Shown one piece after another: positions 21,772 to 44,666 of a stretch of 64,000 bases of DNA (the first letter of the stretch is position 1; the number at the start of each line of letters is the position of its first letter). The notes beneath the pieces are model-generated. The model was not told where the DNA came from. It made no database searches and saw nothing but the letters and a program-made list of their open reading frames with translations. This stretch comes from Nitrospirota bacterium (GTDB lineage: Bacteria > Nitrospirota > UBA9217). The stretch lies in NCBI GenBank assembly GCA_963818475.1, contig CAWFSF010000006.1, positions 1,600,001 to 1,664,000 on the forward strand, read 5' to 3'. Both the position numbers and the translations under genes were made by a program.

Positions 21772-22476
21772 TTACTGCACGAGCGGCAGCAGAACGATCT
21801 CGATCCTGCGGTTCTTATGCTTGCCGTCGTCCGTATCGTTCGGCGCGACCGGCTGGTATTCCGAGTATCCCGTGGCGGACAACAATTTGGCGTCGAGGCC
21901 GCCCTGTTCCTGGAGATAGCGGACAACTTCGGTCGCCCGGGCCGTTGAAAGCTCCCAGTTCGTGGGGAACCGTTTTTTAAGCGCGCTCACGATCGGCACA
22001 TTATCGGTGTGCCCCTCGACCTGGATGCGTTTGTCTTTAATGTCTTTCAGGATGCTGACGACCTTGTCCAGCACCAGCTTCCCGTCCTTGCTGATGTCGG
22101 TGCTGCCCGAGGGGAAGATGATCTTATCCACCATGGTCATGGTCAGACGGTTCTTCATCTCGGTGAGCTGGACCTTCCCCTCCTGGATCTCCTTTTCGAG
22201 CTTCTTCTGCAGGTCCTGATAGGTCTGGGTCGCCCGTTCAAGCTGTTCAGCCTTTTCTGCTTTCTGCGACAGGAGGTCCCGTTCTTTTTCGACTGCCGCC
22301 TTGTCCGTTTTGAGCGCATCCACCTCGGCGGTCAGGTTCTTGACCTGGCCCTGAAGATTATCGCTCAATGCGGCGAGCGTGTCTGCTTCCTTGGCTTTTG
22401 TATCGAATGCAGCCTGCGAAACGCAACCGGTGAGCAACAGGAAGGCAACGAACGGAAAAACATGAATCTTTCTCAT
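21772..22476 (-). CDS. OmpA/MotB-family lipoprotein with coiled coil
   Basis: Lipobox LLTGC; VEGHTD, NWELSTARA, NRRIEI; upstream TTGACA-17-TATTAT (22557-22529). Confidence 0.9.
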   Translation of the reverse strand: MRKIHVFPFVAFLLLTGCVSQAAFDTKAKEADTLAALSDNLQGQVKNLTAEVDALKTDKAAVEKERDLLSQKAEKAEQLERATQTYQDLQKKLEKEIQEGKVQLTEMKNRLTMTMVDKIIFPSGSTDISKDGKLVLDKVVSILKDIKDKRIQVEGHTDNVPIVSALKKRFPTNWELSTARATEVVRYLQEQGGLDAKLLSATGYSEYQPVAPNDTDDGKHKNRRIEIVLLPLVQ

Positions 22477-22580
22477 TATTTCCTCCTTTAGAATATGACG
22501 CATGTCCAGGCGATAAAAAAGCATCGTTATAATAACTTCAGCAGGGTTTATTGTCAAGAATATTGTGGCGCGAAAAGGAC

Positions 22581-23171
22581 TTATAGCGCCTCAAAACACG
22601 GAATGCAGAAGGATTTCCCGCCTTTTTCGCGGCTGCGGGATTCCATGACCTTCTCGTTGCACCGGGCGCAGCGCAGAGAGGCGCGAATGGTCGCTTTGGG
22701 GGGAGTGAGTGCAGCTGCCGGCTGGATGGCCAGGAACTCCTGTTCAGCAGCGCTGAGAATGGCGGCGGCCTTCTCCATTTTCAGCTGCTGCAGCTCGCGG
22801 GACACCTCTTCCCCCGCCTGCTGACGTTTCACGAGCTCCCCGAACCGGCTATCGTCTTCAAAGCCCCGGTAGTCCTCGGAGATGCGCACACCCTGTCCGG
22901 TCCTGCGATTAAAAAAGGTATAAACGTGCTTGCCGTAGTCCCGGAAAACAAGGTTTCCCTTGCCGAAGGTGCAGCCCGTTATGTACTGGATCGCGTCAAC
23001 AGCGCAGGAGTCGTTCTCGACGACTGCCACGAGCTCTTCGTCGTGCGGCCGATCGGCCTTAAGTTCCCGGAGCGCTGCCTTTGCCACGCGATAGCCCAGC
23101 GCAAGGCCCGGGCAGAGGTGGCCGTGGAACTGTACCGTGTCACGGAGATCAGCATCGAAATTATTCTGCAT
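22581..23171 (-). CDS. FmdE-family protein with C-terminal zinc finger
   Basis: FHGHLCPGLALG, ENDSCAVDAIQ..TGCTFGKGN, CARC...CIPC. Confidence 0.9.
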   Translation of the reverse strand: MQNNFDADLRDTVQFHGHLCPGLALGYRVAKAALRELKADRPHDEELVAVVENDSCAVDAIQYITGCTFGKGNLVFRDYGKHVYTFFNRRTGQGVRISEDYRGFEDDSRFGELVKRQQAGEEVSRELQQLKMEKAAAILSAAEQEFLAIQPAAALTPPKATIRASLRCARCNEKVMESRSREKGGKSFCIPCFEAL

Positions 23172-23227
23172 AAGAACCTCTCTTTTCCATAATTGCAGGT
23201 TACAGTGACAGGATTAAGCACTTTCTC

Positions 23228-23262
23228 AATCCGCAATCCGAAATCCGCAATCCGAAATCGAA
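23228..23262. repeat. Family B heptamer array (single arm)
   Basis: aatccgc aatccga aatccgc aatccga aatcg directly after the stop of the His-rich gene. Confidence 0.75.
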
Positions 23263-23547
23263 TTATTTTTTCAACACCAGCTTCGCCGCCAGGACCGCTT
23301 TGGCCCGTTTCAGATGTGCTTTGATCGACTCACTGTCATCAATGGCAAGATGAATTTCTCTCGCGACTTCCTCTTCGCCGGCCGAAACCGCCCGGGCAGC
23401 CCACTCCCTGTAGCTTTCCGCATGGCTGTCGCTGTGTTCGACCCAATGCTCAAGCATTGCCTGCAGCTTGCGCAGGGATTCCGTTCCGGCGTCCGGATGT
23501 TCATGGGCATGATCGTGTGCGTGATGGTGTTTGTGGTTGTCGTGCAT
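23263..23547 (-). CDS. Small His-rich putative nickel-binding protein
   Basis: MHDNHKHHHAHDHAHEH N-terminus plus LEHWVEHSDSH..Y..W helix; directly downstream of nikR. Confidence 0.75.
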   Translation of the reverse strand: MHDNHKHHHAHDHAHEHPDAGTESLRKLQAMLEHWVEHSDSHAESYREWAARAVSAGEEEVAREIHLAIDDSESIKAHLKRAKAVLAAKLVLKK

Positions 23548-26224: not shown

Positions 26225-27264
26225 TCAGGGATGCCTGCGCCTGACCGTTCTGATTCCCATGCCGATCAGCAGGATAAGGCCGAGCACCAGGATTGCTCCG
26301 ACAATTCCCGCCACAGACGTTCCGGTCTCGATGCCGGGCCATGACGGAGCGTTCTCCTTCGGCTTTACCGCATCAGCATCAGGCTTGATGTCATAATCAG
26401 GCATGAGAGCGGTCTTTTCCTGGATGTCCTTCAGTGCCTTCGGCAGCCCTTGCTCCTGCTCGGCCGGTTCTGTCTTGCCAATGATCTTGCTGATGGACCA
26501 CTCAAGCCCGTCCGGACGGGTCGAGGCGAACCACGAAAGCAGCCCCGCCGGTGATGACGGTAAGAACCACAAAACCGACCACAATGTTCTTCAAGGAAAC
26601 CGATGCTCCAGGTTGCAACGGGGCGGCGCTTCCTAATAGCTCCGGCCGCGTCGAGCGGACATAGCTGACCACCCCTGCGGTCACGAAGCCCTCAACAATG
26701 CCGATGGCAAGATGGAGCGGCTGCATAAGAAGCAGAAAAGCGCCGAACGGCAGTTCGCTCTTGCCGGACAGGGCAGTCTCCATGACCACGGAAAAAGCGC
26801 CGAGTTGAAGCGCAGCGACAGCGCTCACCAGCGATGCGAAAAGTATCCGCCGCGAACTTTGACCGTTTCCCGCCAGTCGGTTTATAGATCAAGGGATAGG
26901 CGAAAAAGCACGGATAGATCCCCAGGTTCCAGATATTGCAGCCGAGCGCGAGCAGACCTCCGTCGGCAAAGAACAGCGCCTGCACCGTCAGGACCGAGGC
27001 CATGGCGAGAAAAGCAGCGTAAGGGCCGAGAATTATGGCGAGGATCATGCCGCCGCCGATGTGGCCGCTCGAACCGGTGCCGGGGATCGTGAAATTGATC
27101 ATCTGGGACGCAAAAATAAAAGCGCCCATCACCCCCATGAGCGGGATCATTTTGTCATCTATGTTCTCTTTCAGTTTCTTTGACGCGCAGCCGATCGCCG
27201 CAAGCGTTCCAGCCCAAAACGTCGCGCCCACGGCCGGGGACAACAAAGCATCTGCCATGTGCAT
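26225..27264 (-). CDS. nikM: ECF S component NikM/CbiM fused to a PDGLE (NikN) domain (two frameshifts)
   Basis: N-terminal MHMAD metal-binding motif, FIFASQMINF..GSSGH..G, AS.RPDGLE. Confidence 0.9.
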
Positions 27265-27333
27265 GATAATTTCTCCTGGTTCCCTGTTCACCTGAAACGG
27301 GAGCCATAAACACAGTACATTATCCGACCACCA

Positions 27334-29392: not shown

Positions 29393-32300
29393 CTAATGGA
29401 TCACCCTGATGAAGTCCACGCCTTCGAACGTCGCACTCCCTATCCTGCCGGTCACGTGGACAGGCACCTGGTCGCCGTCCGGAAGGATTGCGATCATTGA
29501 GCTTCGATCGAACTTCACCTTGAGCACGTCATGATCATGCTCCGCGCGGTCTTGATCGCACCCGTGATCGTAGTGATGATAGCTGTGATCATAAGGCCGC
29601 GTCTCGGCAGGGACGACACCTTCAAGCCTGATCGAGGATAGGTCCACGTCCAATGCCCGGTATCCATGGGGTAGTTCCATCTCTACCATGACCCAGTTGC
29701 CGTTGCTCTTTTTATTGAGCGTCTCGGGCTCCACCTCGATATCGACATTGATGCCGGTCTGAGGCACATGGACCGTAAAGGACGCGTTGTTCATCCAGGG
29801 GCCGTACCGGTCGCCGTCAAAGGCCCGCGCCCGCCACTGGTAAGCAGTGTTATCTGAGAGCGGCGCGGCAAGCGTCATGGTCGTGATACCGGCGCCGCCC
29901 TGGGGCACGCCGGAGAGGGACTGGATAAGCGCCATGCCGCTGTAGATCTCGACGTCGTACGTGAGGTTGTCGCTGTCGGGATCAACAGCGTTCGTTACTG
30001 CAAGGAGCGGGTTAAGCGTCGCAACGGTGCTTCCCTCCGCCGGAGAAGACAGGACCGGCGCGCCCGGCGCGTCGTTCGCGGTGTTCACGAAGAACGAGGA
30101 CGCGTCCGACCAGCCGCTTGCAATAGCGCCGTCAAAGGCACGAGCCCGCCAGTAATAAGTGCCGTTCTCTGAAAGCGCCACCGGAACGGTCCAGGTCGTA
30201 TTGCCCGGCGTTTCGGCAAGGACCCCGGAACTCGCTGCCAGGGTTGACAGTCCCGCATCTCCATAGACCTCGAACTCATAGGTCAGGACGTCCCTGTCGG
30301 GATCAGTCGAATTCCAAACTGACAGCACGGGGTTGGACACCGTCACGCCGGAACCGTTCGAAGGATTGGCCGGAACAGGACCGCTTGGAGCGTCGTTCGC
30401 GGTATTTACGAAGATGCTGATAATCTGCGACCACGCGCTCTCGGCCGCTCCGTCGCTCACTTTCGCGCGAACAAAGTATTGCGTATTTTCCTGCAGCCCT
30501 TCCGCGTGCCAGGAAGTGGTTCCCTGTCCTTCCGCGATGCCTCCGGAACGGAAGATCTCTGCGCTGTCGAAGGTCAGGACCGTGTCGATCTCGAAGAAAT
30601 AGGTCAGGACAGCTGAATCAGGATCAGCGCTGTTCCTAACGACCACATCGGCGGCAAGAGACGCTGCCGTGCTGTTGTCCAGAGGCGCGGTGATCAGCGG
30701 CGAACTCGGCGCATCATTTTCCGTGTTCACGAAGAATCTGCCCGTTGTCGACCACGGTCCCTCGATCTGTTGGTCATCGGCCTGTGACCGCCAGAAGTAC
30801 CAGGCATTTTCCTGGAGGTTTACCGGGACCTGCCAGGACGTCGTACCCTCGCCACCTGCAACCTTTTTCATGGTCGCGGTGATCTGTGCAAAATCGGGAT
30901 CGAGGGCCAGGTCGAAATTATAGGTAAGGACCGGGCTGTCCGGATCAGCGGCGTTCGTGACCGCGAGCACCGGGGCAAGCGTGTCTACCCAGGTGCCGTC
31001 AGCCGGACTGGTCAACGTCGGCGCCGAGGGCGGATCGTTCGCGGTGTTCACCCGGAACGATGCTGCCGCCATCCACGGGCCGTACAGCTTTTCGTCATAG
31101 GCCCTGGCCCTCCAGAAATACGTGCTGTTTTCCTGCATATCGGCCGGCACGACCCAGGCGGTCGTCCCGGTCTGCTCAGCAGATCGGTCCGGACGAAGCG
31201 ACCAGGTGCGCAAGCCCACCGTCTGCGTATACTTCGAACTCATAGGTGATCCGGTCGTCGTTCGGGTCCGCAGCATTGCTGATCGTGAGGAACGGTGTGA
31301 ATGTGTCCACATCAGAGCCGGCGCCGGGCGAGAAGAGCGCCGGGACGGTGGGCGCGCCTTCAACTCTGAAATATGTTGCTGCAAGCGTTTCTTCGATGCC
31401 GTTGATATGCGCCCGGAGAACGACGAGATAGTCCTTGGCACTGTAGGCCGTGGTATCGATCGTTCCGCTCCCTGAATAGGCGGCACCGATGGACAACGTC
31501 GCCTGGGACGAGAGGGCATCGTACACGGTCTGGTTGACGGCATGGACGGTCTGGACGGAAAGCGATATATCCTGCAAGTCGACATTTCCGATGTTCGTCA
31601 CTGAATAAGAGACGTTCACGGGCTCGCCGGCCATGAGGCTCTGCTTGTCCACGGACACCTGACCCCGGAGTGCGGACTTGGGCGTTACGAAATTGCTGAT
31701 CACGAGGTTCTGCGCGCCTGTGGCGATGATCGATCCTGTCGCATCTTTCACTTCAAGCGTGACGGGATAGGTCCCCGGGGCGTATGCGGCGGTGTTCCAG
31801 AATGCCTTGAACGTGAATGACGCGCCGGGCATGAGGGTTGTGATGGTCTTTGTTTCCGAATAGAGTGCGCTTCCCTCCCCTGACCCTTGATCCATGGCCT
31901 TTGCGATTGTTATTTTCGCCGTCAGGTTTTCGTGAACACCCTCTCCGCTTTGGCTCGTGATGACGGACGTTATCGTTGCCTGTTCGTTTGCGTTGTAGGA
32001 TATTTTGTCCGTGACAAGAGCAACGCTGATGCTTGCGTCGAGGCTTCCGCTGTATGCCACGGTTTTCGTTATCGTCTGGTTTAAATCGCCGGTGCAGGTC
32101 GCGGTGTACGTCATAGCGCTGGTTATCTGCTGCGAGTACTGGAACAGCTTTGTTTCTCCGGGAAGCACGATGATTTGCTCTGATGTATCAATATTCGCGC
32201 TCCGCACTCCGCATTCCGCGCTCGCTTCTGTTTTGCCGGTGTTCGTAAGCGTCAGGGTCACGGTAAACGGATCGTTCCCGGCCGTATCAGGCGCGGTGAG

Positions 32301-35300
32301 AGTTGCCGTCACGGACGGTGAGCCAACCTCGTACTGGTCTACTATTTCGGCAAGATTCGATCCGGTCTGCGTTACCGTTCCTGCAAGCGAATAGACTCCG
32401 ACAGGTCCCGCAGTGGTTGTCGTGGTAAACAGATAGCTTTCGTTGGCCGGCACATCGACAAGTGCCGTATAAAGAACTTGATTGCCGGCCGTAAGCTGAA
32501 TACCGAGCGCCGATGCTGTGATAGATGCCAGGTTTCTCACTTCCCCGGTGATCGTCACCGTCTCGCCGGGTTTGTAAATCTTTTTGTCCGTGCTGAAGGA
32601 GAGTATGGTATTCCCCTGGATGACATAGAAGGGATATTCCGAGGTCGCGATGGTCTGCCCGGTGCTGGAGGTCAGCGTGCCCTGCAGGTAGAGCTTGCCG
32701 GGAACATCGAGCGTGCCGATCGAATTTGTAAGATTAGAAACCATGCCCTGCGCCAGATGTATCGGCGCGTCGGTCTGCCAGAGGACGTCTCCCGCGTAAT
32801 AACCATAGGTAACTTTAATATCGTTAAGAAGAGGAGTAGTTATCGTGTCTGTTGTCGCCAAAGCAGCTTCAACCTCGATCCAACGGCCATTCGGACTGGT
32901 TATAGCCGATCCACTGGCTGTGATATAGTCGCTCCACGTTGCGATGGACAATCCAGCGTCGGTGTCAGAACTGCGGGTGCGAAGCTTTATTGATGTGCCG
33001 AGCGGAGTAGTCGTATTGAAGGTTATATTTTCCCAATGAGACTGTTGGCCGCCGTCATATTTAGCGCGCCACGTACCGGATGAAGCATATTTTGTGTTGC
33101 GCGCAGTGAAGTTATCAAAACCTGCGCTTGCGTTTCCATTACTCCCCATCCACACCTTCATAAGAGGTCGCACCGGTTCCGCTGTAAAATTCGCTACGTT
33201 TCCAAGCATGACCCAATTTGTTCCATCATGGTAATACGTGCTAAGCTGGCTGCCTGTTCTGGCAATGCGCAGTTTTCCCGAAGTGTTAGAAGTGGGGACT
33301 TCATCCGTGTTTGCCATCACATCATTGACCTTGATACCTCGCAGATAAAATTCGCCGCTGCTGTTATGCATCCGTTTGATCATCGCAAAATTACCCGAGA
33401 ATTGACCCGCGTCCGCGACAATAGCCAATTCCGGTCCTGTATCTCCAGTGGCATTGGTGCTGAACTCGCTCCAATCAACCTGGATGTCAAAATCGTTCAA
33501 TAAGTAAGACCAGTTCTTTGTTTCTACGTTCTCGCCGTATAAACCGTTATTCACCTTGATATACAGCTTGCCGTTTTGGGTGACAAATGACCCCGAGTTA
33601 TTCCCCCACAGATCGAGCTTTTCCCATCGATCCATATTCAATACTCCGGGATCGTAATTGTCATTAGCCGGCAGCAGCCGCACGGAATCAACCGTCTCGT
33701 TCTTGGTTACAATCCTGCCGGAGTTGATCTTAAAATTATCAAATTTGGCGTTTGCCGAATATCCCTGCCCTCGCCATATCCATAATTGAACGGAGGGTTT
33801 GTCCGCAAACTGTGAATACGTCCTGCTTAACATTTGAGTCCAGCCGGAACCATTCCAGTAGTAAGTCGCAATATTGCTGCCCATTCTCGTAATCCTCAAG
33901 CGGCCGGAGGAAACATAGCTTCCCGCGCCCGCCGAAGCGACCCTGCTTCCGTTTATGTTAATACCGCTTGAATAGCCGCCCGATGACATATTTTTCACAA
34001 AGACCCAGTAAGTACTCGCATATAAAGCGAATTCAGGGCCCTCGTCCAGGGCACTGTTATTCGAATCAAAATCAACCTGAATATCGAAATCACCGTCAAG
34101 CTGCCATAAACTTTTCGCACCGGATGCAGTCGTAGCATCATTTATGTACAGTTTGCCCGACTGAATACTGACATTGCCCCACGAGGACCATTTATTGCTA
34201 TCAAGAGAAGTTTTGTCGAAATCATCATTCGGTATCAGCCAGTCATTCATGCCATATGTGTCTACACCGTTTCTAACCCCCTCTTGAAAATCGTTTTGAC
34301 TCGCCCAGGTCTTCGACTTCTGGCTGTCCCCTGCCGCAGTGACCTGTAAATGCAGGTTTCCATTCTGGAGCGCGGTGCCGGTGTTGGTGATCGCACCGTA
34401 GCTCGTGATATTTTCGGTCGTGAGATAGCTCGGCTTATCGGTCTGGGCTGACAGGCCGGCCTTGATGCCGGCAATCGTGAGGGGCATGCTCACAATTTCG
34501 GTCTTTCCGGTCGATTCATCTTTGTAATTCGCGATGATGCTGTAACTGCCGTCCACCGCGCCGATAGGAATGGCGAGGGATGGTGTAGCGGTCGATCCGG
34601 CCGGTACAATTTGGCTATTGCTTCCCGAGGAAATTAATGCGGCCTTTGAATCGAAGAGATCCAGCGTATACTGAACGGTAGTATCAACTCCCCCGGTGTT
34701 CGAAATAACGGGGCTGATGCTTCCGCCCGCAGTATATGCCGTTTGGTCGAGCGACAGAGACAAAGCGGATTCCGGTATTGTGAACTGCGCACTCTGGACG
34801 GTAGTCGATCCCGACGGCAGGGTGAGCGTTATGGTTGCCGTATGCTGCCCGGCAGTCATAGTATCAGGGATTGCAAAGGAAACCGGTATCTGAACACTTC
34901 CGGCACCCTCGCCCCCTGCGGGAGAGGGGGGAAGCGTTATTGTTTTCGTAAAACCCGCATCCGGGACAGCAAGCGTGATCGTCATGCCCTCCTGGCTGAA
35001 ATTTCCCGTATTGCTCAGGCTGGTCACGAGATTCGCCGTTTCCCTGATCTTGTACGATGCCTTGTCGAACATCATGGTAGCGTTCACCGTGTTCGGCAGC
35101 TGGATCGTCATCGCCTGCCCGTCCATCGTTTCATCGCTCTGCGTATATGTGAGCGTGTATGCGCCGAACTTAATCGCAGGTAGCGATGGGTCATAAGCAA
35201 GAGTTTTGGTCTCACTTGTTCCCAAACTAAACGACTGCGTCGCGCTGGATATCACCTGGCCGTCGGGGTCCGTGAGGATCACGTTGAGCGCACCGGAGGA

Positions 35301-37133
35301 TACGGCGTATGTGCCAGTGTTCGCAAGGTTGAAGGAGACAGTGTTTGCGCCGGTGATGAATGCGGCGGGCAATACGGGGGTCACTGATATCTGGCTCGTG
35401 AATATGCCGAAGTTGGTCGATACATCCCCTAGTTTCGCCGCGTTTGCGTCATAGACCTCCGCCAGGACCGTGTAGAAACCGCGCTGGGGATTTGCGGGCA
35501 GCGCAAAGTTGAGGCTCTGGACAGTCGGGCTTTTTGCGATCAGGCTCAGGTCCAGGCTCGTGTCGAATACGCTCGCGCCGGAGGGATCGCTTACCCGCAC
35601 TTTCAACGTGACCGGATATCCGATCGAGCGATTGTTCCGGATGGTGATGGAAACGCCGGCGGTGTCGCCTTTTCTGTAGATCGCCTTGTCGGTCTGGGCA
35701 AAGACATTCACGAACGCGGGAGGGGTCTTGGACATCATGGGGTTGTAGATCAGGACCCCTCCGGCTGCCAGATCGCCGGTGATGGGCACGTTCCAGTATA
35801 CGTCCCCAGTGGGTCCAGCGGGGGTCCCGACGGTGATGGTTCCGGGATTGACGCCCGTGATCTTGTACGAGCCGTCAGCAGCGGAAATCGCCTGAAGGGT
35901 GTAGATACCCGAAGTCGCCTGTACGGTTACGCCCGCGAAGGGGATATTATTATCAGCATTCCAAACAATGCCCATGACAGTGCCGGATATGGGATTGACG
36001 GACATGCCGACCTTGCCGAGGTTGATGAAGGTGCCTGCGCTGATGGATGCGGTGACGGTGAGCGGCGAATATCCGGCCAAGGAAAGGGTTATCTGCCGGC
36101 TGCCGACCGGGATGCCGGAGAGCGCGAACATGCCGCTTGCGTTCGATGTGGCGGTGTATGATGGATCACCGGTGAGCTGAATGCTGACGCCTGATAGTAG
36201 CGTATTAGTCGTTGCATCTACGATTGTGCCCATAACCGAGCCGGTTGTTGCTGCGGGCGGCGGCGAGGCGGGTATGTGCTCGGAGAGATAGAGCGCCTTG
36301 AGCGCAAGGGCAGTGCTGTAAGGATCGTCGTTCCAGGAACCATTGGATGATTGCGTGGTTGTGAGGTAGTTCAGGGCATTGCCGAGGATCGTCGCGTCGG
36401 TTGATATGCCGACTAATGCGGAATACGCGAGAGATGTTTCATACACAGTGGACGAAGGGTATCCGAACCCACCGTCCGTGTTCTGATGGCTGGAGAGATA
36501 TGCTGTGGCTTTGGTGATGGCTGTGGCAAGGGTCGTGGTCTGGGGAAATTGCTGGAGCGTGGCGGAGACGATGGCGGTCATGTAGACGCTGCTGGAATTA
36601 TCCTTAAAGAAACCCCATCCGCCGTCTGTATTTTGACTATTCGTGAGATAGGCGAGTGCGGTGTTGCTTACTGAGAGGTCGGGGTAGTTCGCGGCCTTGA
36701 GGGCGTGGAGGGCGAGGGCGGTGTCGAGATTATCGCCGAGGTAAGAGTTCTCCCCACCCCATCCGCCGTTAGAATTGCGATACAGGAGCAGAACTTCCAA
36801 TTCGCTTGATATCTCCAGCCCTGCCCGCTTGAGTGCAATGATGCGACGGGAGAGGTAATCCGTCGGGGAAACCATCTGTCCGGTCATCCACTGAAAAGCG
36901 GTCGTATACGCAGGGCTTGACGGTTCGATGGCATAGACCGCGTCGAGTGACGCTGCCGTGGAGTAATATTCCGTGTTATCAACTTCCAACCAGTTACCCG
37001 AGGATGTCTGGGCCGATGTGAGCCAGGAAATGCCACTAGTAATTTGCGGCGCCCCCGCAATGGAAAGAGAGGCAGAGAATAATATTAAAAATGAGGCGAC
37101 GCAAAGACCGAAGCAAGGTGACCTTCTCAACAT
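29393..37133 (-). CDS. Giant (~2,580 aa) secreted multidomain protein: prenyltransferase/squalene-oxidase-type repeats, carboxypeptidase-regulatory-like and Ig/CARDB-like domains, two ConA/LamG-like repeats, five FN3/Ig-like repeats (one frameshift near 31185)
   Basis: SD AGGAGG and signal peptide; five QxxxGxW-type repeats; the repeat unit continues across ORFs 31176-37151 and 29393-31585 (NTANDAP...WRARA). Confidence 0.8.
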
Positions 37134-37309
37134 GTTTCCTCCTAACAACACTTAGCTTATGATGGAGAATAAATAAAACATTTATATTGTCACGATCCTT
37201 GCTGATCATAAATTCAAGGTCTGAAAACCATTTCAGCAATACAACGCCTGCATCAAAGTCCTCTTTGAATGCAATTCTATTGATAGCAGCAATTTTATTT
37301 CTATCAATA

Positions 37310-38389
37310 TTACTTGCGATCTAAAGCAGCTTTTAATTCTTTTTCATATTCCAGGATTACAGTAACATTGTCTTTTTCTATTTTATTTAAACCTGATTCT
37401 TTAAAGTCAGGCCTCGGCTTGTACCAATCGTATTTTCTAAAATATTTATCAAGCGCTGGATCTTTGAAGATCATTCCATGATAGGCATAAATCGTATTTC
37501 TTAATATCTTTAGCTGCCAAGAAGAGAGAAGTTCCAATTGTGAACGTTCAACAATCTTTTCGGAGTATGCTGGTCCATCCCAAGCCTCCCAATTCGACGT
37601 TACTAAGAATTTGAGGTTTTCATTTTCTTTTGGTTCAATATCTTTAAGAGTATATTCATATTCGTACTCGCCCAGACGCCTAAACTCGAATTTTCTGATA
37701 TTCTGTTCATTTCCGTTCTCGGTAAAGGCAACATCGAGCAGCGTAACCCTAGGAGATGCCTTTACAATAAATCGTGCTTTCCCGATCGTCCCTTTCCAGC
37801 TTTTTCCAGTGCCATACAAATATTCACCTTTATCTTCATGGCGACCACCATATGGTCCCGTGAATTTAACGCGTGTTAATGTTTTTGCATTCCCCTTGAA
37901 TGTAACGTTTTTTACGAGCCAGTGTGTTTCCTCGAGCGGTCCAGATAAGTCTCCTTTTCTTATTTGCGCCATCTGTGCTGAATCTACTTTTTTACGACTA
38001 ATCGTCATCTCACCAGGCATTTCCTTAACATCAACTTTATCGCCGTCAACCCATGTTTCAAAGCTATTAAAATTTATGACACCTCTGAAACCAGGCATAT
38101 AGCCGTAACCACTTTTCGGAAAACCTACTTGAGCGTTCATAGTTTTTCCATAATTAAAAAACTCAAAAGTAGCATCAACAGTATAGGTCTTCTTATGGAG
38201 CTCAATTCTGACAGCCTCAGACTCCATTCTTATAGGCGTTGAATCTCCATCGTACAATTTCAATCCACCACCATATACTTTCAGTAAAGCATCATCGCAT
38301 AAAGCAGGTGATGAAAGCAGTACTATGAGACACATTAAAATTATCCATTGGAATTGACGCAAACATCTAAATAATATATTTGACTGCAT
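37310..38389 (-). CDS. Exported DUF4424-like + YARHG-domain protein
   Basis: Signal peptide; IRMESEAV, YLYGTGKSWKGTIG; C-terminal LRNTIYAYHG..F....YF..YDWY.P (YARHG); AT-rich. Confidence 0.8.
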   Translation of the reverse strand: MQSNILFRCLRQFQWIILMCLIVLLSSPALCDDALLKVYGGGLKLYDGDSTPIRMESEAVRIELHKKTYTVDATFEFFNYGKTMNAQVGFPKSGYGYMPGFRGVINFNSFETWVDGDKVDVKEMPGEMTISRKKVDSAQMAQIRKGDLSGPLEETHWLVKNVTFKGNAKTLTRVKFTGPYGGRHEDKGEYLYGTGKSWKGTIGKARFIVKASPRVTLLDVAFTENGNEQNIRKFEFRRLGEYEYEYTLKDIEPKENENLKFLVTSNWEAWDGPAYSEKIVERSQLELLSSWQLKILRNTIYAYHGMIFKDPALDKYFRKYDWYKPRPDFKESGLNKIEKDNVTVILEYEKELKAALDRK

Positions 38390-38467
38390 AAACCCTCCAA
38401 ATTGCTATTGCCTATTCAGGCCAATCTGACAAAAAAACAGTTTACCACATGTAGACAATATTGCACG

Positions 38468-41400
38468 TTAGTCTTGTATTTCAACTGCATCAGGTACGGG
38501 CCTTCCGATATCGGCCGTAATCCCGCCGGCGCCTGTAAAAGCAGGATGATTCGTATAAGTAATCACAACCTTCTTAAGGCTATCCCCGTTTTTGAAATGT
38601 GAGCTAGTTGCGTGGATAACCGTGTCATCTACAACAATTTCACCTGTATACAGCTTCCCGTAATATATTCCTGTATGTCCATAATTATCACTCCAAAGGA
38701 TATCGCCATCTAATTTTTCATCGTACGGGTGGGTCATCTTTTTATTCAGCAGATACTGATGCTGCCCACTTGCGGTACGTCTTATTCCTCCGAACATTTG
38801 CGTACCATATACAGCAGTAAATACATAATGAACAAGACCGGAGCAATCAAATCCAGTATCTGGATCTGAACCTGCCCTAACATACGGGGTTTCCAATTGA
38901 GCCATTGCATACATAACAATCATTGTTCTACCAAAAATCGTTTTTAGCGCTGAACCGTCACCCCAGAAAAACTGAAAAGGGTCTCTCACAGTTCTAGTTG
39001 GTTGTCGCGTAGTATTTCCGCCTGCTGTACCACTACTGATCATATAACTAGCCGCTCCCGTCGATGGATCGAGAACTATATAACCGATGCCGTTCCAGCC
39101 TTCGTATTGCACGTACGTCTGTGAGACAATGACTTTTTTCTCAGCGTTGACAGCATTCCTGATAGCATCTGAGACTTCCGCAGAAACCTGTATTTGCGTT
39201 AATGTCGTGGATATATTACCGCTATCTATAGTATAAACCGGCACACCTTGCTGATTGGCCAATCTGAGCAACCTTGCTGCCGAAACGGACGGAATATCAT
39301 AAAAAGCTTGCAACACCCTGTCTTCCCATGCAGAGCTTCCGAGTCCTGAAACAATCATAAAATCTCTTGCGCGGTCTTGGCTACCGTCGTATGAAAAAGG
39401 CAAATATTCATTTTTGTCGACATCAATGCCAATTCCACCTTCCGAAATATTGTAAGGTACACCAAAGAGCGAATTCGTGACTGCATGGGAAGTAATCATT
39501 GCCTCAGAAATCCCTTTTACCACAATCATCTGAAAATTCTTAGCATAGAGTTCTTCTTCGAAATTGAGATGATGGAAATACGATATCCCGACGTTATAAA
39601 GCATCTGTCCTAGCAAGTCATCGAGATTAGAACTTCCGATGTTGTTTATAAGTGTCTCCATTTTATCGCCTGCCTGCGTAACAGGAACCTTCTGGGATAA
39701 AATGGCAATTGCCGAATAATCCCCTGTCGTCACTTTATTCGCAACAAATTCCGTTCCTAAATTGGGTATCGTGAAAGTCATATTGAATGTCTGTTCGTGG
39801 CCTAGACCAACCGGATTGCCCGTTGCTAACGTTACGCCATTAATCTTCAATACCACCGTGACATTCAATAAATATGGTGGAACGCTAAGAAGCGTACCAT
39901 ACTGATTTACGAGTAATTCATCTGCCTTTGTGGCGGGAACATATGAAAGAGTTATTCTCTTTCCAGACATCCTGGGATGTTGCCGCCGGGGAATTCGCAT
40001 CGATATAATCGATCAATCTTTTGCTATAATATTGATATGGGCTAATTGTATATGCGGGAAATACGGATTGTAATTCTGGTAGAAGCGTCAGAGACGAAGT
40101 GTCTGCTATGTAATCCTGAATATACTTCACTCCATTAATTTCCATTGCGGCATACAAATCCATGCCACGTTTATAGTCATATTGTTTATAGCTCGCATCA
40201 AGCGGTATCCAAGTATCACCTTGACGATGGACGGCACCACGGCTCGGGATATAGTCGATGAACGCGCTCACGTAAACATGTTCGAGCTGAACAGCCTTAT
40301 ATGTTCCGCCGGAAACAAGCATTTTAGCCGGAATGCCATTAGTGGCGAGAATCGTCCCGACCATCTTCGGATCGGTCACGCCGCCGACCCAGTTCATGGC
40401 TTGTTCGATCGGGATTTCGACTGTGGAATATTCGTAGTGGGAGTAGACACCGGACACGCGGAGCAGAGCAATGAGCAGTGATGCCGTGTCCATATCGTTG
40501 CATATCTTTGACTGGAGGCACTGGTCCGCGCCCTGGATGCTGCCGTAGGTGGGTGCATATTCGATATTATTGCGCACCCATTCGTAGATTTTGAGCGGTT
40601 TTCCACCCAGTTCCTGCGCCTTGGCGCGGATGGCGTCGGTAAATTGTACGTCTGGCGTTTCCGCTAAGTCTTCAGCGGAGGGTTGGACTGTCGCTTGCGC
40701 GAGGAGAAATTGTGATGAATCGGCGAAGGCTACCTGCGAAATTGCCCCCTCACCCCAGCCCTCTCCCACGCTGGGGAGAGGGAGGTTGTTCCCTGCGGTT
40801 CGAGGAAGCTGGAAGGGAGCGTCGCTGGCGATGTCGTTGTAAGCCAATACGATCGATTTTTGCCTGGTTCTTTCACGCAGACTGTAGTCTGCGGCTACAA
40901 TATTACGCAATCCAGCGGGTCTTCTTCCGCTGTGGAAAGTCTCTCTCGAATTCTTCTTTTTTGAGTCTCGGTTCGCGCATCTTCCCTGCAGTCCGCGCTC
41001 TGAAAGGGAGATTATTCGGGTCGAGCTTCTGGTGCCTTGATGGCGCTTTGACCTTTTCAAGATGCAGCCTTGCTGTTTCAATTTTGGCCTTGCGGTCTGA
41101 TCTTGGTCTTTGCCAGCTCGATACCGTCGAGGTTCGCCCTCAGCTCTTTCAGATTATTTTCATAGTGTTTTACGAATTTATAATGCCGGTCGAGGATCTC
41201 TTTCGGAAGCTTTGCGTCTTTAAGCTTCTTCTCCGTGGCGCTGAATTCTTTTTTGAACTCAACATCCGCAGAGTCGATCTCAGCCCTCTTCGTCTTGATA
41301 GATTCCCGTTCCTGCGTATCGTCTTCGCCTTTGTCTTCTTTATCCCTGGCCTTGTCAACATTCTCCCGGATCCCGTCGAGGGCTTTTTCAAACCGTTCCT

Positions 41401-41573
41401 CGGGCCGTCCTTGCCCCTTGCTATTTGCTACTTGATCCTGACCTGGTTCCCGACTTGCGCGCCTCCGGCTCTGCCGCATACGCAACCGCCTGCCATAACG
41501 GCAAAAAACTCCAGCAGAAAAAGAAAAGCGTAATGGCTGAGATGTTTCTTAAGACACGATGGAACGTCCGCAT
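38468..41573 (-). CDS. Secreted transglutaminase-like-domain protein with C-terminal NlpC/P60 peptidase domain (~1,030 aa, several frameshifts)
   Basis: SD GGAGG plus MRTFHRVLRNISAITLFFFCWSFL..AVAYA signal; IYEWVRNNIEY.PTYGS.QGA, DTASLLIALLR, EHVYV, WIPLD; tip PYV.AG...GFDCSGLV...GHTGIY...IHA. Confidence 0.8.
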
Positions 41574-41666
41574 GATTCCTCCACTGATAGGGTGCTGCAA
41601 AAATACGATAACGCTACTAAATACTAGAAAATGTGCATCAAGGTAGCATGGTCTTTGTTACTTGTC

Positions 41667-41686
41667 ACCTGTCAGAAGTGACAGGT
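41667..41686 (-). promoter_or_regulatory. lux-box-like 20-bp palindrome at class II activator position
   Basis: ACCTGTCA-GAAG-TGACAGGT; on the minus strand TG-c-TACCTT (-10 at 41645-41640) places its centre at about -43. Confidence 0.55.
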
Positions 41687-41902
41687 ATGCAGATATCCTT
41701 CGGAGTACGCCCATTGAGTTGAAATTCCGAGGCGGACACGGCATATACCATCTTCAGATTACAATAGGTATATGCGTATCGCAGTGCAGCTGTTGTATCA
41801 TGGATTACCGTTGCGGTCAATACCCTGAAAATACCCTGAGCCGGGCTATGGAGGTGATAATAATTGCAGTTATAGATGAACTACGATGGGGAATTTACTT
41901 CA

Positions 41903-42054: not shown

Positions 42055-42453
42055 TTACCTTTGAAAAAGACTTAGAGGTGAATAACGCGCGATGGAAATA
42101 AAATGAGCGTCTAATGTGAAAACAGGCACTTTGTTCGCAATGGCGATTTCGCCGATCAACAAATCCACGGTTCCAACGGTAATCCCATGCTGAGAGAGAA
42201 CATAACCGAGCTCACCTGCCGCCTTAAAGTACTCATCCTTTACGGTTAAACACTCAATCGACGACAAAAGATCATCAAGAACCGCTGTCTCTTTCTTCGA
42301 TTTTGCACCTCGATACAACTCTGTGGCGATGATCCCCGTATAAACAGGAGCCCCTGTTCTGAGCAACTGTTTAACCGCCATTGACACGCTTGCATTGGCG
42401 TCCCTGAAAAAAGCGATCCAGACAGAAGTATCGACAAGTATTTTACCGCTCAT
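42055..42453 (-). CDS. vapC: PIN-domain toxin VapC
   Basis: ILVDTSVWI, E, DLLI, TLDAHF acidic PIN residues. Confidence 0.92.
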   Translation of the reverse strand: MSGKILVDTSVWIAFFRDANASVSMAVKQLLRTGAPVYTGIIATELYRGAKSKKETAVLDDLLSSIECLTVKDEYFKAAGELGYVLSQHGITVGTVDLLIGEIAIANKVPVFTLDAHFISIARYSPLSLFQR

Positions 42454-42637
42454 GCCGTGACTTCTCCCAATCAGGAGAAAAATGTAGCTTTCCCTCCATA
42501 CTGATAATATCTTCGAGCTTTTTGCGGCGGATATAGTCCTCCAGAGCGGTAACAATAGCGGCGGTCTTTGTCTTACTCTTGGACAGCTTCATGGTCTTTT
42601 TAACCAGGTCATCAGGTATGTTAAGCGTCGTTTTCAT
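42443..42637 (-). CDS. vapB: VapB-family antitoxin
   Basis: MKTTLNIPDDL...TKT.AI..ALE; overlaps vapC start; promoter TTGACG-17-TAAAGT (42696-42668). Confidence 0.9.
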   Translation of the reverse strand: MKTTLNIPDDLVKKTMKLSKSKTKTAAIVTALEDYIRRKKLEDIISMEGKLHFSPDWEKSRHER

Positions 42638-42809
42638 AGCACCTCCATTACGCATTTCAATACGGTCACTTTACCAACAATTGTCCATACCGTCAATCAA
42701 TTTCATCCATATTTAATCTTTTACCTGCATGACTGTTCATAACTGCTTCGGTCAAGGATATCAGGGTTTTGGGCGGGGTTAATTTCAAGGTATGCCTTTT
42801 ACTACGGCT

Positions 42810-42963: not shown

Positions 42964-44666
42964 CTATGCTTTTTTCTGCCTCAGCGCCAGCAGAACGTCC
43001 AGGCTTATCTCGAAGGCAGCCGAGGGCATGGTGATCTGACGGCGTTCGAGCACCTCAGGCCGCAGCTCGCCGATGAACCCCGCCTCGCGCCCGGACGCAA
43101 CGATCCTGCCGCAACGGCCCGGCAGATAGAGCGGGTGCTCCGCGGGATCAAGCTTATACTCGATGCCCAGGTAATAGAGCAGGATATCGAGGAACGAGTG
43201 CATCTCGGAGAAATTCGCGGTCGGGTGCGAGATGAGCGACGCGAGCAGAAGGTCCGTGCGCGTTCCCATGTTCTGCTCAGGGTCGAGCACGGCCACCTCG
43301 CCGACCTCGAATATGCGATGCGGATAGAACGCCTTCGAGCTTGCCGTCTCGACGCTCAGGATCGACGGGACGACGCGGTTCCTGAGCACCGAATAGGCGA
43401 GCGACATCGGGTTCGCCACTTCGACGAGCTTCTCATCAGGCGACAGCGTATCCTCCAGCTCTTCGCGGGAGCAGAGGATATTGGACATGATCTCCTGGAA
43501 GCCCGACCCGACCATGTTCCCGCGCACCGTGTCCGACAGCAGTTCAAGCGCTGACAACGAGCCGACCGTCGACTGCTGCGGCATGATCGGCTGGAACGAG
43601 CCATATCCCCTGCTGATGGCATAGTCCTCAACGAGGTCCATGGGGTGCATGATATCGTCGCGGTAGGGCGGCACCACGACCGTTACTGCCCCGCTGGAGG
43701 CGGTGACGCGGTGCCCGTAGGCGCTTAAATGCTTTTTCACGTCGGTTAAGAGAAACGTTCTCACCGAGCCCGGCTGAAAATGTTTCGAGCGACACCTTCA
43801 TCTTGACGGAGGTATCATGGGGGAACGATATGCTCTTGCCGAGTTCGGTGGCATAGGGGTACAGGACCTTCACCGGCTCGATGTCGGCGCCGCGGTCGTA
43901 GAAGCTGGCAGCCAGGATATTGAGCGTCAGCACCGTCATCCTGAAATCCGTTCCGGTCACCTCGATCAGCACGCTTCGCGTCGTCGGCTTCACCTCGCCG
44001 ATCTCCGTGCTGTTGATGATCGGCGGGAACGAGAGCACGCGACCCAGGCTGTCGGTCAGGACCGGGTACTCCGGGAAGGACTTCACGATAGTGCCGTAGG
44101 CGATGCCTTTGGGGTGCTGTTCGAGGATCTCGGCAAGCGTCAGCTTCCGGTCCATGCCGAGCGGCGTAAACGATACTGATGACGGCTCTGCCAGGCGGTA
44201 GTCCACGGGAAAGGCGATCTTGTCGAGTTCGTAGATGCCGATCGAGACCGTGGAGCGCTTCCTGCCGAAGATCTCGGCAAGCTTGTCCTGGCTCTGGATC
44301 ATCTGCGCCAGAACATCGCTGCTCATGCGCATGCCGCTGGCAGTACAGGCGGCGATGAAGGGCCGCACGGTCTTCATGCCTTTGGCGACCCGGATCTCCC
44401 GCGTCGCCTTCCTGCCGTGCTGGAAGTAGGGAGAAGCTTCCGGCTTGCCGGCAAGGAAGATCCTGATCTGGCGCGCGATGCCCTCGGCAGACCACAGGTC
44501 GGGCCGGTTGCTGTCGGAAAGCTCGACCTTGAGATCGTCGGTCTCGGCAATGTATTCCTTGAGCTCGGCCTTGGCAAGCATGAGGCTGCTTTTCGAGCGT
44601 CTCAAGGGAAAGTTTCTTTCCGATGAGTCCGTCGAGGTCGCGTTTTTTGATGTCGATAGTAGGCAT
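42964..44666 (-). CDS. pheT: Phenylalanyl-tRNA synthetase beta subunit, archaeal/eukaryotic type (frameshifts near 44590 and 43750)
   Basis: MPTI start, DSNRPDLWSAEGIAR, QDKL..FGRKR, LSFPPIINS, VPPYRDDIMHPMDLVED; ~565 aa, no B2 or B8 domain. Confidence 0.92.

Follow-up and report, generated by a model that had tools for sequence, protein, structure and literature searches.

A damaged three-gene locus in a Nitrospirota bacterium, probably belonging to a widespread Sec-dependent polymorphic toxin system

The locus and its genes

The Nitrospirota bacterium of assembly GCA_963818475.1 (lineage UBA9217) possesses, on contig CAWFSF010000006.1, three co-oriented genes, which are designated here as genes 1–3 and run on the minus strand from 41573 to 29393. 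All positions are those of the window, i.e., the whole stretch of 64,000 nucleotides that was analysed (contig positions 1,600,001 to 1,664,000). Gene 1 codes for a carrier that ends in an NlpC/P60 tip, gene 2 for a YARHG protein and gene 3 for a giant protein with an alpha/alpha-toroid domain. In our judgement, the locus is likely to be a degraded, probably non-functional copy of a widespread Sec-dependent polymorphic toxin system. Its features, and the evidence for each, are as follows.

38468..41573, minus strand: gene 1, carrier and NlpC/P60 tip, in at least five frame pieces in the assembly (tblastn of the intact homologue P0001; open reading frames, ORFs)
41102..41442, minus strand: N-terminal helical module of gene 1, its limits being two single-base insertions relative to the paralogue on contig C5
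40194..40643, minus strand: transglutaminase-like domain, predicted to be inactive (PF01841; residues 147-296 of ORF 39918-41081)
39961..40142, minus strand: net loss of ~209 nucleotides with a frame change (389 nucleotides in a relative's contig, 180 in the window)
39017..39085, minus strand: junction motif GYIVLDPSTGAASYMISSGTAGG, where the conserved carrier ends (residues 306-328 of ORF 38468-40000)
38468..39019, minus strand: C-terminal tip of 183 amino acids, an NlpC/P60 papain-fold peptidase with Cys-His-His present (PF00877; alignment to solved chains)
37310..38389, minus strand: gene 2, exported DUF4424-like and YARHG protein (lpg2210-type), candidate immunity protein (Pfam; 30 homologues)
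29393..37151, minus strand: gene 3, giant exported partner, ~2,586 codons long and broken in frame at 31182 (ORFs, Pfam)
36252..37064, minus strand: alpha/alpha-toroid domain of gene 3 (Pfam SQHop_cyclase_C, Prenyltrans, TED_complement)
37000..40450, no strand: segment rich in adenine and thymine (AT-rich), which takes in gene 2 and the distal two thirds of gene 1 (guanine-cytosine (GC) content 0.37-0.47 vs 0.55-0.61 in the flanks)

An earlier note, made from the letters alone, had described three co-oriented genes with signal peptides, and we confirmed a signal-peptide-like N-terminus on each of them. Gene 1 starts with the ATG at 41573 and the signal peptide MRTFHRVLRNISAITLFFFCWSFLPLWQAVAYAA. 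The transglutaminase core (Transglut_core, 39.5 bits; cut-off 23), the junction motif and the NlpC/P60 domain with its Cys-His-His (NLPC_P60, PF00877, 31.6 bits; cut-off 23) were found as described, whereas the single intact gene that had been assumed lies in five pieces and three frames. Gene 2 codes for an exported YARHG protein, as proposed (67.6 bits; cut-off 27); its DUF4424 score of 21.5 bits is below the cut-off of 27, which is reached in the homologues of loci L011 and L016. The size and the immunoglobulin (Ig)-type make-up claimed for gene 3 were upheld, whereas its frame is broken by one extra base at 31182 relative to a 97.6%-identical paralogue; the domains reported by Pfam are MG2, CarboxypepD_reg, fn3/Ig-like and the toroid.

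The carrier and the tip of gene 1

The domain order of gene 1 was read from the AlphaFold model of an intact 1,105-amino-acid homologue (mean predicted local distance difference test score, pLDDT, 77.7; predicted template modelling score, pTM, 0.71). The model runs from a signal helix through a helical module (residues 56-173), a disordered linker (214-293), a transglutaminase fold (294-470) and a beta/alpha body (470-925), whose final strands are the junction motif, to a flexible linker and the NlpC/P60 tip. The carrier is ~920 amino acids long and terminates with GYIxxDPxTGAGAYMISGG, after which the tip follows. In the tip of the window, FDCSG...HTGIY...IHA is aligned with the Cys, His and His of solved NlpC/P60 enzymes, and in the homologue model the tip matches 7cfl (Z 16.1, root-mean-square deviation 1.8, 120 residues aligned), LytE (8i2f, Z 15.7) and Tae3 (4hz9, Z 8.9).

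For the transglutaminase domain, phmmer with the 387-amino-acid ORF that contains it gave zero matches among PDB sequences, and a 45-sequence profile was required. With this profile, the catalytic Cys of 3isr (GVCRDFA) is aligned with Asp in the carrier family, while His136 and Asp163 are retained. Because the catalytic Cys is aligned with Asp, the domain is unlikely to act as a thiol peptidase or cross-linker. Fold searches with the whole 1,105-amino-acid model (Foldseek against the PDB, VIA wide) gave matches for the tip and for the transglutaminase domain (3isr, Z 11.4), and otherwise to generic helical bundles; the body (480-920) was covered by these searches as part of the whole model. 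In the ESM Atlas, the top score for residues 480-925 was 0.84, to unnamed clusters. No curated model for the body was present among the Pfam and NCBIfam scans. Pfam at E≤5 reported nothing for residues 150-330 of the 510-amino-acid C-terminal ORF (the 181 residues before the tip), neither PT-TG (PF14449) nor another pre-toxin family. In NCBIfam, none of the six ORF pieces scored above the cut-off of a family, and PADLOC models matched neither the carrier and its paralogue nor the YARHG protein and the giant's N-terminus.

The carrier family and its variable tails

Searching with the 510-amino-acid ORF among longer proteins yielded 63 homologues of 942-2,186 amino acids, 48 of which have both Pfam domains. 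Relatives are encoded in 551 of 581 candidate stretches (one genome per GTDB prokaryotic species), and 73 loci were kept from these 551 for the neighbourhood work. A profile search of 1.84 billion representatives retrieved 3,904 cluster representatives (50% identity) at E≤1e-30. The hosts include Nitrospirota, Nitrospinota, Geobacter, Smithella, Methylomirabilis, Thermoanaerobaculia, Methylobacter, Thiomargarita, Sulfuricella and Pelotomaculum, among which Geobacter argillaceus (L026) and Methylobacter luteus (L053) are cultured.

For the majority of loci, similarity to the intact homologue ends at residues 907-928, mostly 919-921, which is the motif GxGYIIxDPxTGAGAYMISGGxxG. The earlier note had expected the sequence after this motif and the next gene to vary while the giant gene stays linked, and all three expectations were borne out, the linked gene being one that begins with the giant's toroid domain. 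Variation after the motif is sharp: BLASTP sorts 89 tails (88 from the loci and that of the window) into 58 clusters, including 44 singletons, and the window tail belongs to the largest, which comprises 13 NlpC/P60 tails. An independent sample, taken from the top-150 representatives, gave 76 clusters from 142 tails (57 singletons). Between copies within a locus (20 pairs), identity is 41-95% over the final 120 carrier residues and drops to 4-25% in the tails.

Pfam matches among 86 tails were NLPC_P60 (14), CHAP (4), phospholipase A2 (2) and the RHS-associated DUF6531 (2), along with one weak match each to the ADP-ribosyltransferase family Tox-ART-HYD1 and the Colicin pore domain; 41 or more of the tails matched nothing. 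The majority are 100-160 amino acids long with 2-5 hydrophobic helices and are often Gly/Ala-rich, and many open with a hydrophobic helix immediately past the motif. Two or more hydrophobic helices are present in 90 of the 142 tails of the second sample.

Full carrier copies stand in tandem in several loci. Truncated modules, in which the last 100-500 carrier residues are followed by a new tail, are present in L011, L012, L014, L028, L040, L048 and L067; those in L011, L012, L014, L048 and L067 lie downstream of full genes and comprise carrier residues from ~720-800 to 920 plus the tail. The truncated modules follow the orphan-module pattern of Rhs loci and of contact-dependent growth inhibition (CDI) loci. 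None was detected in the window by tblastn of the intact homologue.

Several individual tails were also recorded. Those of L033 and L042 are 1,173+ and 1,872 amino acids long with PKD/Ig and RHS-associated domains, and P0062 has RHS; the same carrier can be fused to an Rhs-type cage. The tails of L023 and L025, which match the prokaryotic phospholipase A2, are Cys-rich, and behind each lies a small ORF (145-174 amino acids), the one after L023 having four predicted membrane helices. In L028, a 461-amino-acid ORF (21941-23323) lies directly after one carrier copy of a three-copy array. A DDE transposase match was obtained for one of 58 scanned next-gene ORFs, for which the 461-amino-acid ORF is a candidate; if the two are the same, transposition may contribute to array growth.

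Genes directly downstream of the tails

The next gene (ORF of at least 70 amino acids) starts -28 to +130 nucleotides from the carrier stop in 57 of 83 cases, frequently overlapping the stop. It codes for a multi-pass protein after 34 of 41 membrane-type tails vs 5 of 16 other tails (Fisher p=3e-4). Similar next genes were found in 9 of 56 same-tail pairs vs 6 of 2,500 different-tail pairs, counts that are uncorrected for ancestry. By both measures, the next gene covaries with the tail.

After NlpC/P60 tails, the next genes code for exported soluble proteins of several unrelated kinds: DUF4424/YARHG proteins in the window, L002 and L016, an unannotated protein of ~330 amino acids in L001, L018 and L022, PD40 propellers in L006 and L012, and others. 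The L001 protein is exported and, judged from its repeats, beta-propeller-like, with no Pfam match. Linkage to a YARHG homologue appears in six of the seven closest carrier homologues (seen directly in L002 and, for P0001-P0005, inferred from contigs of equal length), and a congener (G139) has the same three-gene order as the window. A co-fold of the window tip (328-510) with the YARHG protein (32-359) scored 0.16, the mark being 0.32.

The toroid partner

Gene 3 is ordered as a signal peptide, the toroid, CarboxypepD_reg, MG2 (68.2 bits) and many Ig/fn3-like modules; a C-terminal sorting tag was looked for in gene 3, and none was found. The toroid model (pLDDT 93.8) has as its top Foldseek match 8pak (template modelling score 0.78), which belongs to the single-domain squalene-hopene-cyclase-like proteins; prenyltransferase beta subunits come next in likeness, and then complement thioester domains and GH105/GH76. 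The toroid (residues 30-300 of the giant) contains zero Cys and therefore no thioester, and a DxDD motif was not seen in its sequence.

When the 789 ORFs of the 73 loci were clustered all against all, only two widely conserved families emerged, the carrier (68 loci) and the toroid protein (38 loci). With tblastn, 48 of the 73 loci were found to have the toroid domain, always on the carrier's strand. Among 40 full-length carriers whose downstream flank reaches 4 kb or more, it lies within 4 kb downstream in 27, further downstream in five (four behind extra carrier copies, and L054 at 4,044 nucleotides, just beyond the cut-off) and upstream in two. The toroid domain is the sole constant part of the partner, and what follows it varies, from four CARDB domains in L001 to the MG2/Ig arrays of ~2,300 amino acids in the window. 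Over 30 carrier/partner pairs, toroid identity correlates with that of the carrier N-module (Spearman 0.79), the transglutaminase domain (0.59) and the body (0.30), and the N-module with the body at 0.22. The correlation between N-module and toroid is compatible with docking, of which it is no proof.

The third-largest neighbourhood family consists of GGDEF response regulators (11 of 73 loci, e.g., L009 1554-6666). These recurrent genes may hint at control by cyclic di-GMP.

Base composition and paralogous loci

The AT-rich turn inside gene 1 and the recovery at gene 3 that had been noticed earlier were reproduced: GC content is 0.55 at 40.5-41.0 kb, 0.37-0.47 across 40.5-37.0 kb and 0.56 in gene 3. 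The AT-rich segment is likely to be an imported cassette. Two further carrier loci are present in the genome (G000).

G000:C5:278800-293500, strand not stated: paralogous locus L074, with an intact 1,130-amino-acid carrier and a different, CHAP/NlpC-like tip
G000:C2:545000-563000, strand not stated: third, distant carrier locus L075, 32% identity over residues 298-710

L074 is ordered as the carrier, exported PD40-like and NHL-like propeller-like proteins, and the toroid giant gene, which is 97.6% identical to gene 3 and lies in several frame pieces. The first ~770 nucleotides of gene 1 are 91% identical to this paralogue (41693-40920, three indels; blastn), and the similarity stops at ~40.5 kb, coincident with the GC drop. 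The bodies, tips and neighbours of the two loci are different, while the 5' ends and giant genes are alike. That the GC break coincides with the end of paralogue similarity fits cassette exchange by recombination inside the carrier, as the earlier note had envisaged. Because the toroid tracks the N-module and the paralogous loci share 5' ends and giant genes but no bodies, tips or neighbours, we conclude that body, tip and neighbour are exchanged as a unit, with the N-module and the giant resident. The 5' identity to L074 also suggests gene conversion between the loci.

Other features around these boundaries were recorded as well. In L075, a toroid-domain gene lies ~6.7 kb downstream of the carrier relative. 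Directly upstream of gene 1, within the AT-rich stretch, is a vapBC-type pair (PIN domain and VapB antitoxin; 42055-42655, minus strand). The linker of gene 1 contains a short repeat.

40759..40782, no strand: short palindromic repeat in the disordered linker, coding in frame for GEGWGEG (sequence)

This palindrome has six copies in the genome at ≤3 mismatches (in the window, on C2 and at four other sites on C6), in a metagenome run the read depth rises fivefold there, and many contigs terminate at it. The peptide GEGWGEG is also present in the linker of the intact C5 paralogue, and the palindrome that codes for it is a widespread small repeat.

Frame breaks and assembly quality

With the intact homologue as the query, tblastn divides gene 1 into five pieces in three frames (41573-41457, 41440-41102, 41109-40906, 41009-39966 and 39976-38483), i.e., at least four frame changes, and ~68 codons are absent, residues 535-600 of the homologue having no counterpart. 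Relative to the intact C5 paralogue, single bases are inserted at 41442 and 41102 (blastn), and the base at 41102 is likewise absent from the ~92%-identical metagenomic contig of a relative. The comparison with this contig drew on two sequencing runs, which contain 6-7% of the sampled words. The ~209-nucleotide loss is out of frame and, according to the model, takes out beta-strands of the carrier body (homologue strands 544-599).

One explanation is that all of these breaks are assembly errors and that gene 1 is intact and working in the organism. The window does carry such errors: pheT, which is essential, is split between overlapping ORFs (43628-44605 and 42964-43764, minus strand, one with the B3_4 piece and one with the B5 and catalytic-like piece; region 42964-44666), and cbiM between ORFs 26692-27291 and 26502-26828 (minus strand; profile positions 1-126 and 142-205). 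Because these genes are equally split between frames, we conclude that the assembly carries indel errors; the single-base shifts therefore prove nothing, and those of gene 1 may be artefacts. The giant paralogues, moreover, differ by 17 gap openings in 7.3 kb, and neither the 510-amino-acid C-terminal ORF with the tip nor gene 2 is broken. However, the ~209-nucleotide out-of-frame loss (~68 residues) is absent from the homologues and from the ~92%-identical contig, and four frame changes in 3.1 kb are denser than in the rest of the window. We consider it rather unlikely that assembly errors account for everything; the ~209-nucleotide loss is probably real, and the window copy of gene 1 is likely to be non-functional.

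Discussion

Taking the locus as a damaged member of a polymorphic toxin family, we propose the following scheme. The product of an intact gene 1 would be an exported carrier with a short, exchangeable toxic tip past the junction motif. An NlpC/P60 tip like that of the window is predicted to cleave the peptides of peptidoglycan in the target cell's periplasm, while in most relatives a 100-160-amino-acid bundle of 2-5 hydrophobic helices is predicted to damage the membrane. The gene directly downstream would confer immunity, through a multi-pass membrane protein for membrane-type tips and an exported soluble protein, such as the DUF4424/YARHG protein of the window, for wall-degrading tips. New tips would come by recombination within the carrier, from orphan modules or other strains, and the toroid and Ig-array gene would be the conserved partner, whose toroid domain co-varies with the carrier N-module. 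Passage across the outer membrane, release at the motif and any docking on the giant protein would also belong to the scheme, and the display or targeting of the toxin by the giant, which the earlier note had put forward, is kept as a hypothesis.

Several observations weigh against this scheme. The first group concerns immunity. The tips of L001 and L002 are 61% identical overall, with nearly the same C-terminal stretches, and their next genes are unrelated (hhalign probability 0.9% between the exported L001 protein and the L002 YARHG protein). In L011, an L001-type protein stands between the tip and the YARHG gene, which is second after the tip, and full-length gene 2 homologues were found in only two of 301 genomes of the phylum, its own included. 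Reportedly, there is precedent for unrelated immunity proteins against one toxin (PMC13392607, PMC12744356). The L001/L002 pair speaks against the earlier note's assignment of the YARHG protein as the immunity protein, which we retain as a hypothesis, with gene 2 as a candidate.

The second group concerns linkage and delivery. The toroid gene was undetected within 10 kb in six of the 40 well-flanked carriers, the broken window copy may do nothing in its host, and our literature search found no experimental study of any family member. Clustering of the 73 loci revealed no conserved outer-membrane export or delivery machinery nearby. In a diderm cell, a Sec signal alone leads to periplasmic retention, and hydrophobic helices at the C-terminus would halt transfer and lodge in the inner membrane of the producer, so that the membrane-type tails could be anchors. 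Delivery is the main difficulty of the toxin reading.

An alternative to a weapon is an envelope scaffold. The carrier would then be a periplasmic protein with a fast-evolving C-terminal membrane anchor or wall-remodelling NlpC/P60 module, and would act with the next protein and the macroglobulin-like giant in envelope maintenance or protection, as proposed for bacterial alpha-2-macroglobulins. Export by a Sec signal only, with delivery machinery absent from the conserved neighbours, agrees with this explanation, as do the hydrophobic helix right after the motif in many tails, which would halt Sec transfer, the MG2 and thioester-domain-like domains of gene 3, the pairing of near-identical tips with unrelated next genes, and the binding near peptidoglycan that has been proposed for YARHG (PMC3355149, PMC3848476). 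Because the Sec signal and the hydrophobic C-terminal helices predict inner-membrane retention, we leave the scaffold a small but real share of probability and regard it as unlikely. Anchors would leave unexplained the fall in identity from 41-95% to 4-25% at one motif, the carrier-truncated orphan modules with their own next genes, the tandem arrays, the soluble toxin-type tips (phospholipase A2) and the RHS-linked tails of 1,173+ and 1,872 amino acids, and the toroid, without Cys and hence without a thioester, also speaks against it.

It is also conceivable, and in our view very unlikely, that the system is directed at its own bearers, in kin discrimination or phage-triggered envelope suicide, instead of at competitors. 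Its high polymorphism, the membrane-depolarising-type tails, which resemble abortive-infection effectors, the giant Ig-like surface array, which could be a sensor, and the adjoining vapBC pair would suit such a role. However, PADLOC defence models gave zero matches to the carrier, the YARHG protein and the giant's N-terminus, no conserved phage or defence genes lie nearby, and polymorphic toxins that serve competition are typically marked by orphan modules and by enzymatic tips of toxin types.

Within the polymorphic toxin reading, delivery might be provided by the locus itself. We tentatively propose, as a possibility whose chances we put below even, that the carrier and the toroid/Ig giant form an unrecognised two-gene delivery platform needing no known secretion system: the N-module would dock on the toroid of a long surface fibre, and the tip, in most cases a small helical bundle that inserts into membranes, would be released at the DPxTG...GG junction into neighbouring cells. 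If true, such a platform would be common in Nitrospirota, Desulfobacterota (Geobacter, Smithella), methanotrophs and sulfur oxidisers.

If the family as a whole is what we propose, a large carrier class with thousands of clusters would be added to the polymorphic toxins, together with a big reservoir of unannotated small membrane-type tips and paired immunity genes and with a conserved giant partner, through whose role it could be explained how toxins exported by Sec arrive at other cells. To our knowledge, almost nothing is known about interbacterial antagonism in Nitrospirota, Desulfobacterota, methanotrophs and sulfur oxidisers, and the family would open a first way into how nitrite oxidisers, metal reducers and methanotrophs compete. 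The window copy alone is of lower value because it is damaged and an intact paralogue is present on another contig of the same genome.

Comparison with known systems

The earlier note could tie the architecture to no characterised system; there is, however, a precedent for part of it. Zhang et al. (2012, PMC3482391) describe polymorphic toxins of the Sec-dependent class that have an inactive transglutaminase as N-terminal domain. According to these authors, the domain comes directly behind the signal peptide, RHS arrays always follow it, and it may serve as an anchor for the toxin via peptide binding. The carriers resemble these toxins in the Sec class, in a transglutaminase that has lost its catalytic residue (Cys to Asp here), in variable C-terminal toxin domains and, for a few members, in an RHS extension (P0062, one of the 63 homologues; DUF6531 in two of 86 tails). 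Unlike those toxins, they have a transglutaminase domain that begins near residue 294, behind the helical module and linker, and is followed by a ~450-amino-acid non-RHS body with the DPxTGAGAYxISGG junction; most tails, including that of the window, are short and without RHS, and small hydrophobic tips are dominant. The part of the paper's text covered here mentions no prenyltransferase, toroid or macroglobulin partner, and its architecture lists may include members. Our literature search found no paper that joins the carrier with a toroid, prenyltransferase-like or macroglobulin-like partner, and neither the junction motif nor the membrane-type tips were found in the texts covered.

The tip shares its fold, its Cys-His-His and an adjoining gene for an exported protein with T6SS (type VI secretion system) Tae/Tai pairs and with NlpC/P60 D,L-endopeptidases (LytE, CwlO and RipA; inhibitor IseA). 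Unlike Tae effectors, it is fused to a Sec-exported carrier and has no T6SS delivery, and by Pfam the neighbouring YARHG protein is unrelated to Tai and IseA. Gene 2 itself, with YARHG at 67.6 bits and DUF4424 at a sub-threshold 21.5 bits (homologues reach the cut-off), is like lpg2210 of Legionella pneumophila, which consists of a DUF4424 beta-sandwich and a YARHG helical domain (Coggill et al. 2013, PMC3848476). Unlike gene 2, lpg2210 is not known to have been given a role beside a toxin.

Gene 3 shares MG2 with the bacterial alpha-2-macroglobulins, and its toroid is weakly like the C3d/C4/C5 thioester domains. Unlike in alpha-2-macroglobulin, the toroid is N-terminal and Cys-free, the domain order is different and the protein is exported. 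As an (alpha/alpha)6 toroid, the domain is also like those of class II terpene cyclases and prenyltransferases.

Junction motifs mark the end of the constant part in other polymorphic toxins, namely VENN in CDI and PxxxxDPxGL in Rhs proteins. The present family is like these in its conserved carrier, its sharp junction motif and its downstream orphan modules of tip and putative immunity gene. It is unlike them in that the carrier fold is unrelated and the conserved partner is a toroid and Ig-array protein. Clustering of the 73 loci, which included no hidden Markov model search aimed at such components, gave no TpsA/TpsB, filamentous haemagglutinin repeats, PAAR or VgrG among the conserved neighbours, in agreement with the earlier note's view that the system is distinct from Rhs, CDI and T6SS. 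The helical, membrane-spanning tips and their multi-pass neighbours nevertheless recall the polymorphic ionophore toxins of CDI and their polymorphic immunity proteins, as described by Halvorsen et al. (2024, PMC11630599); among known systems, the CDI ionophore toxins are the best functional analogue for the hydrophobic tips.

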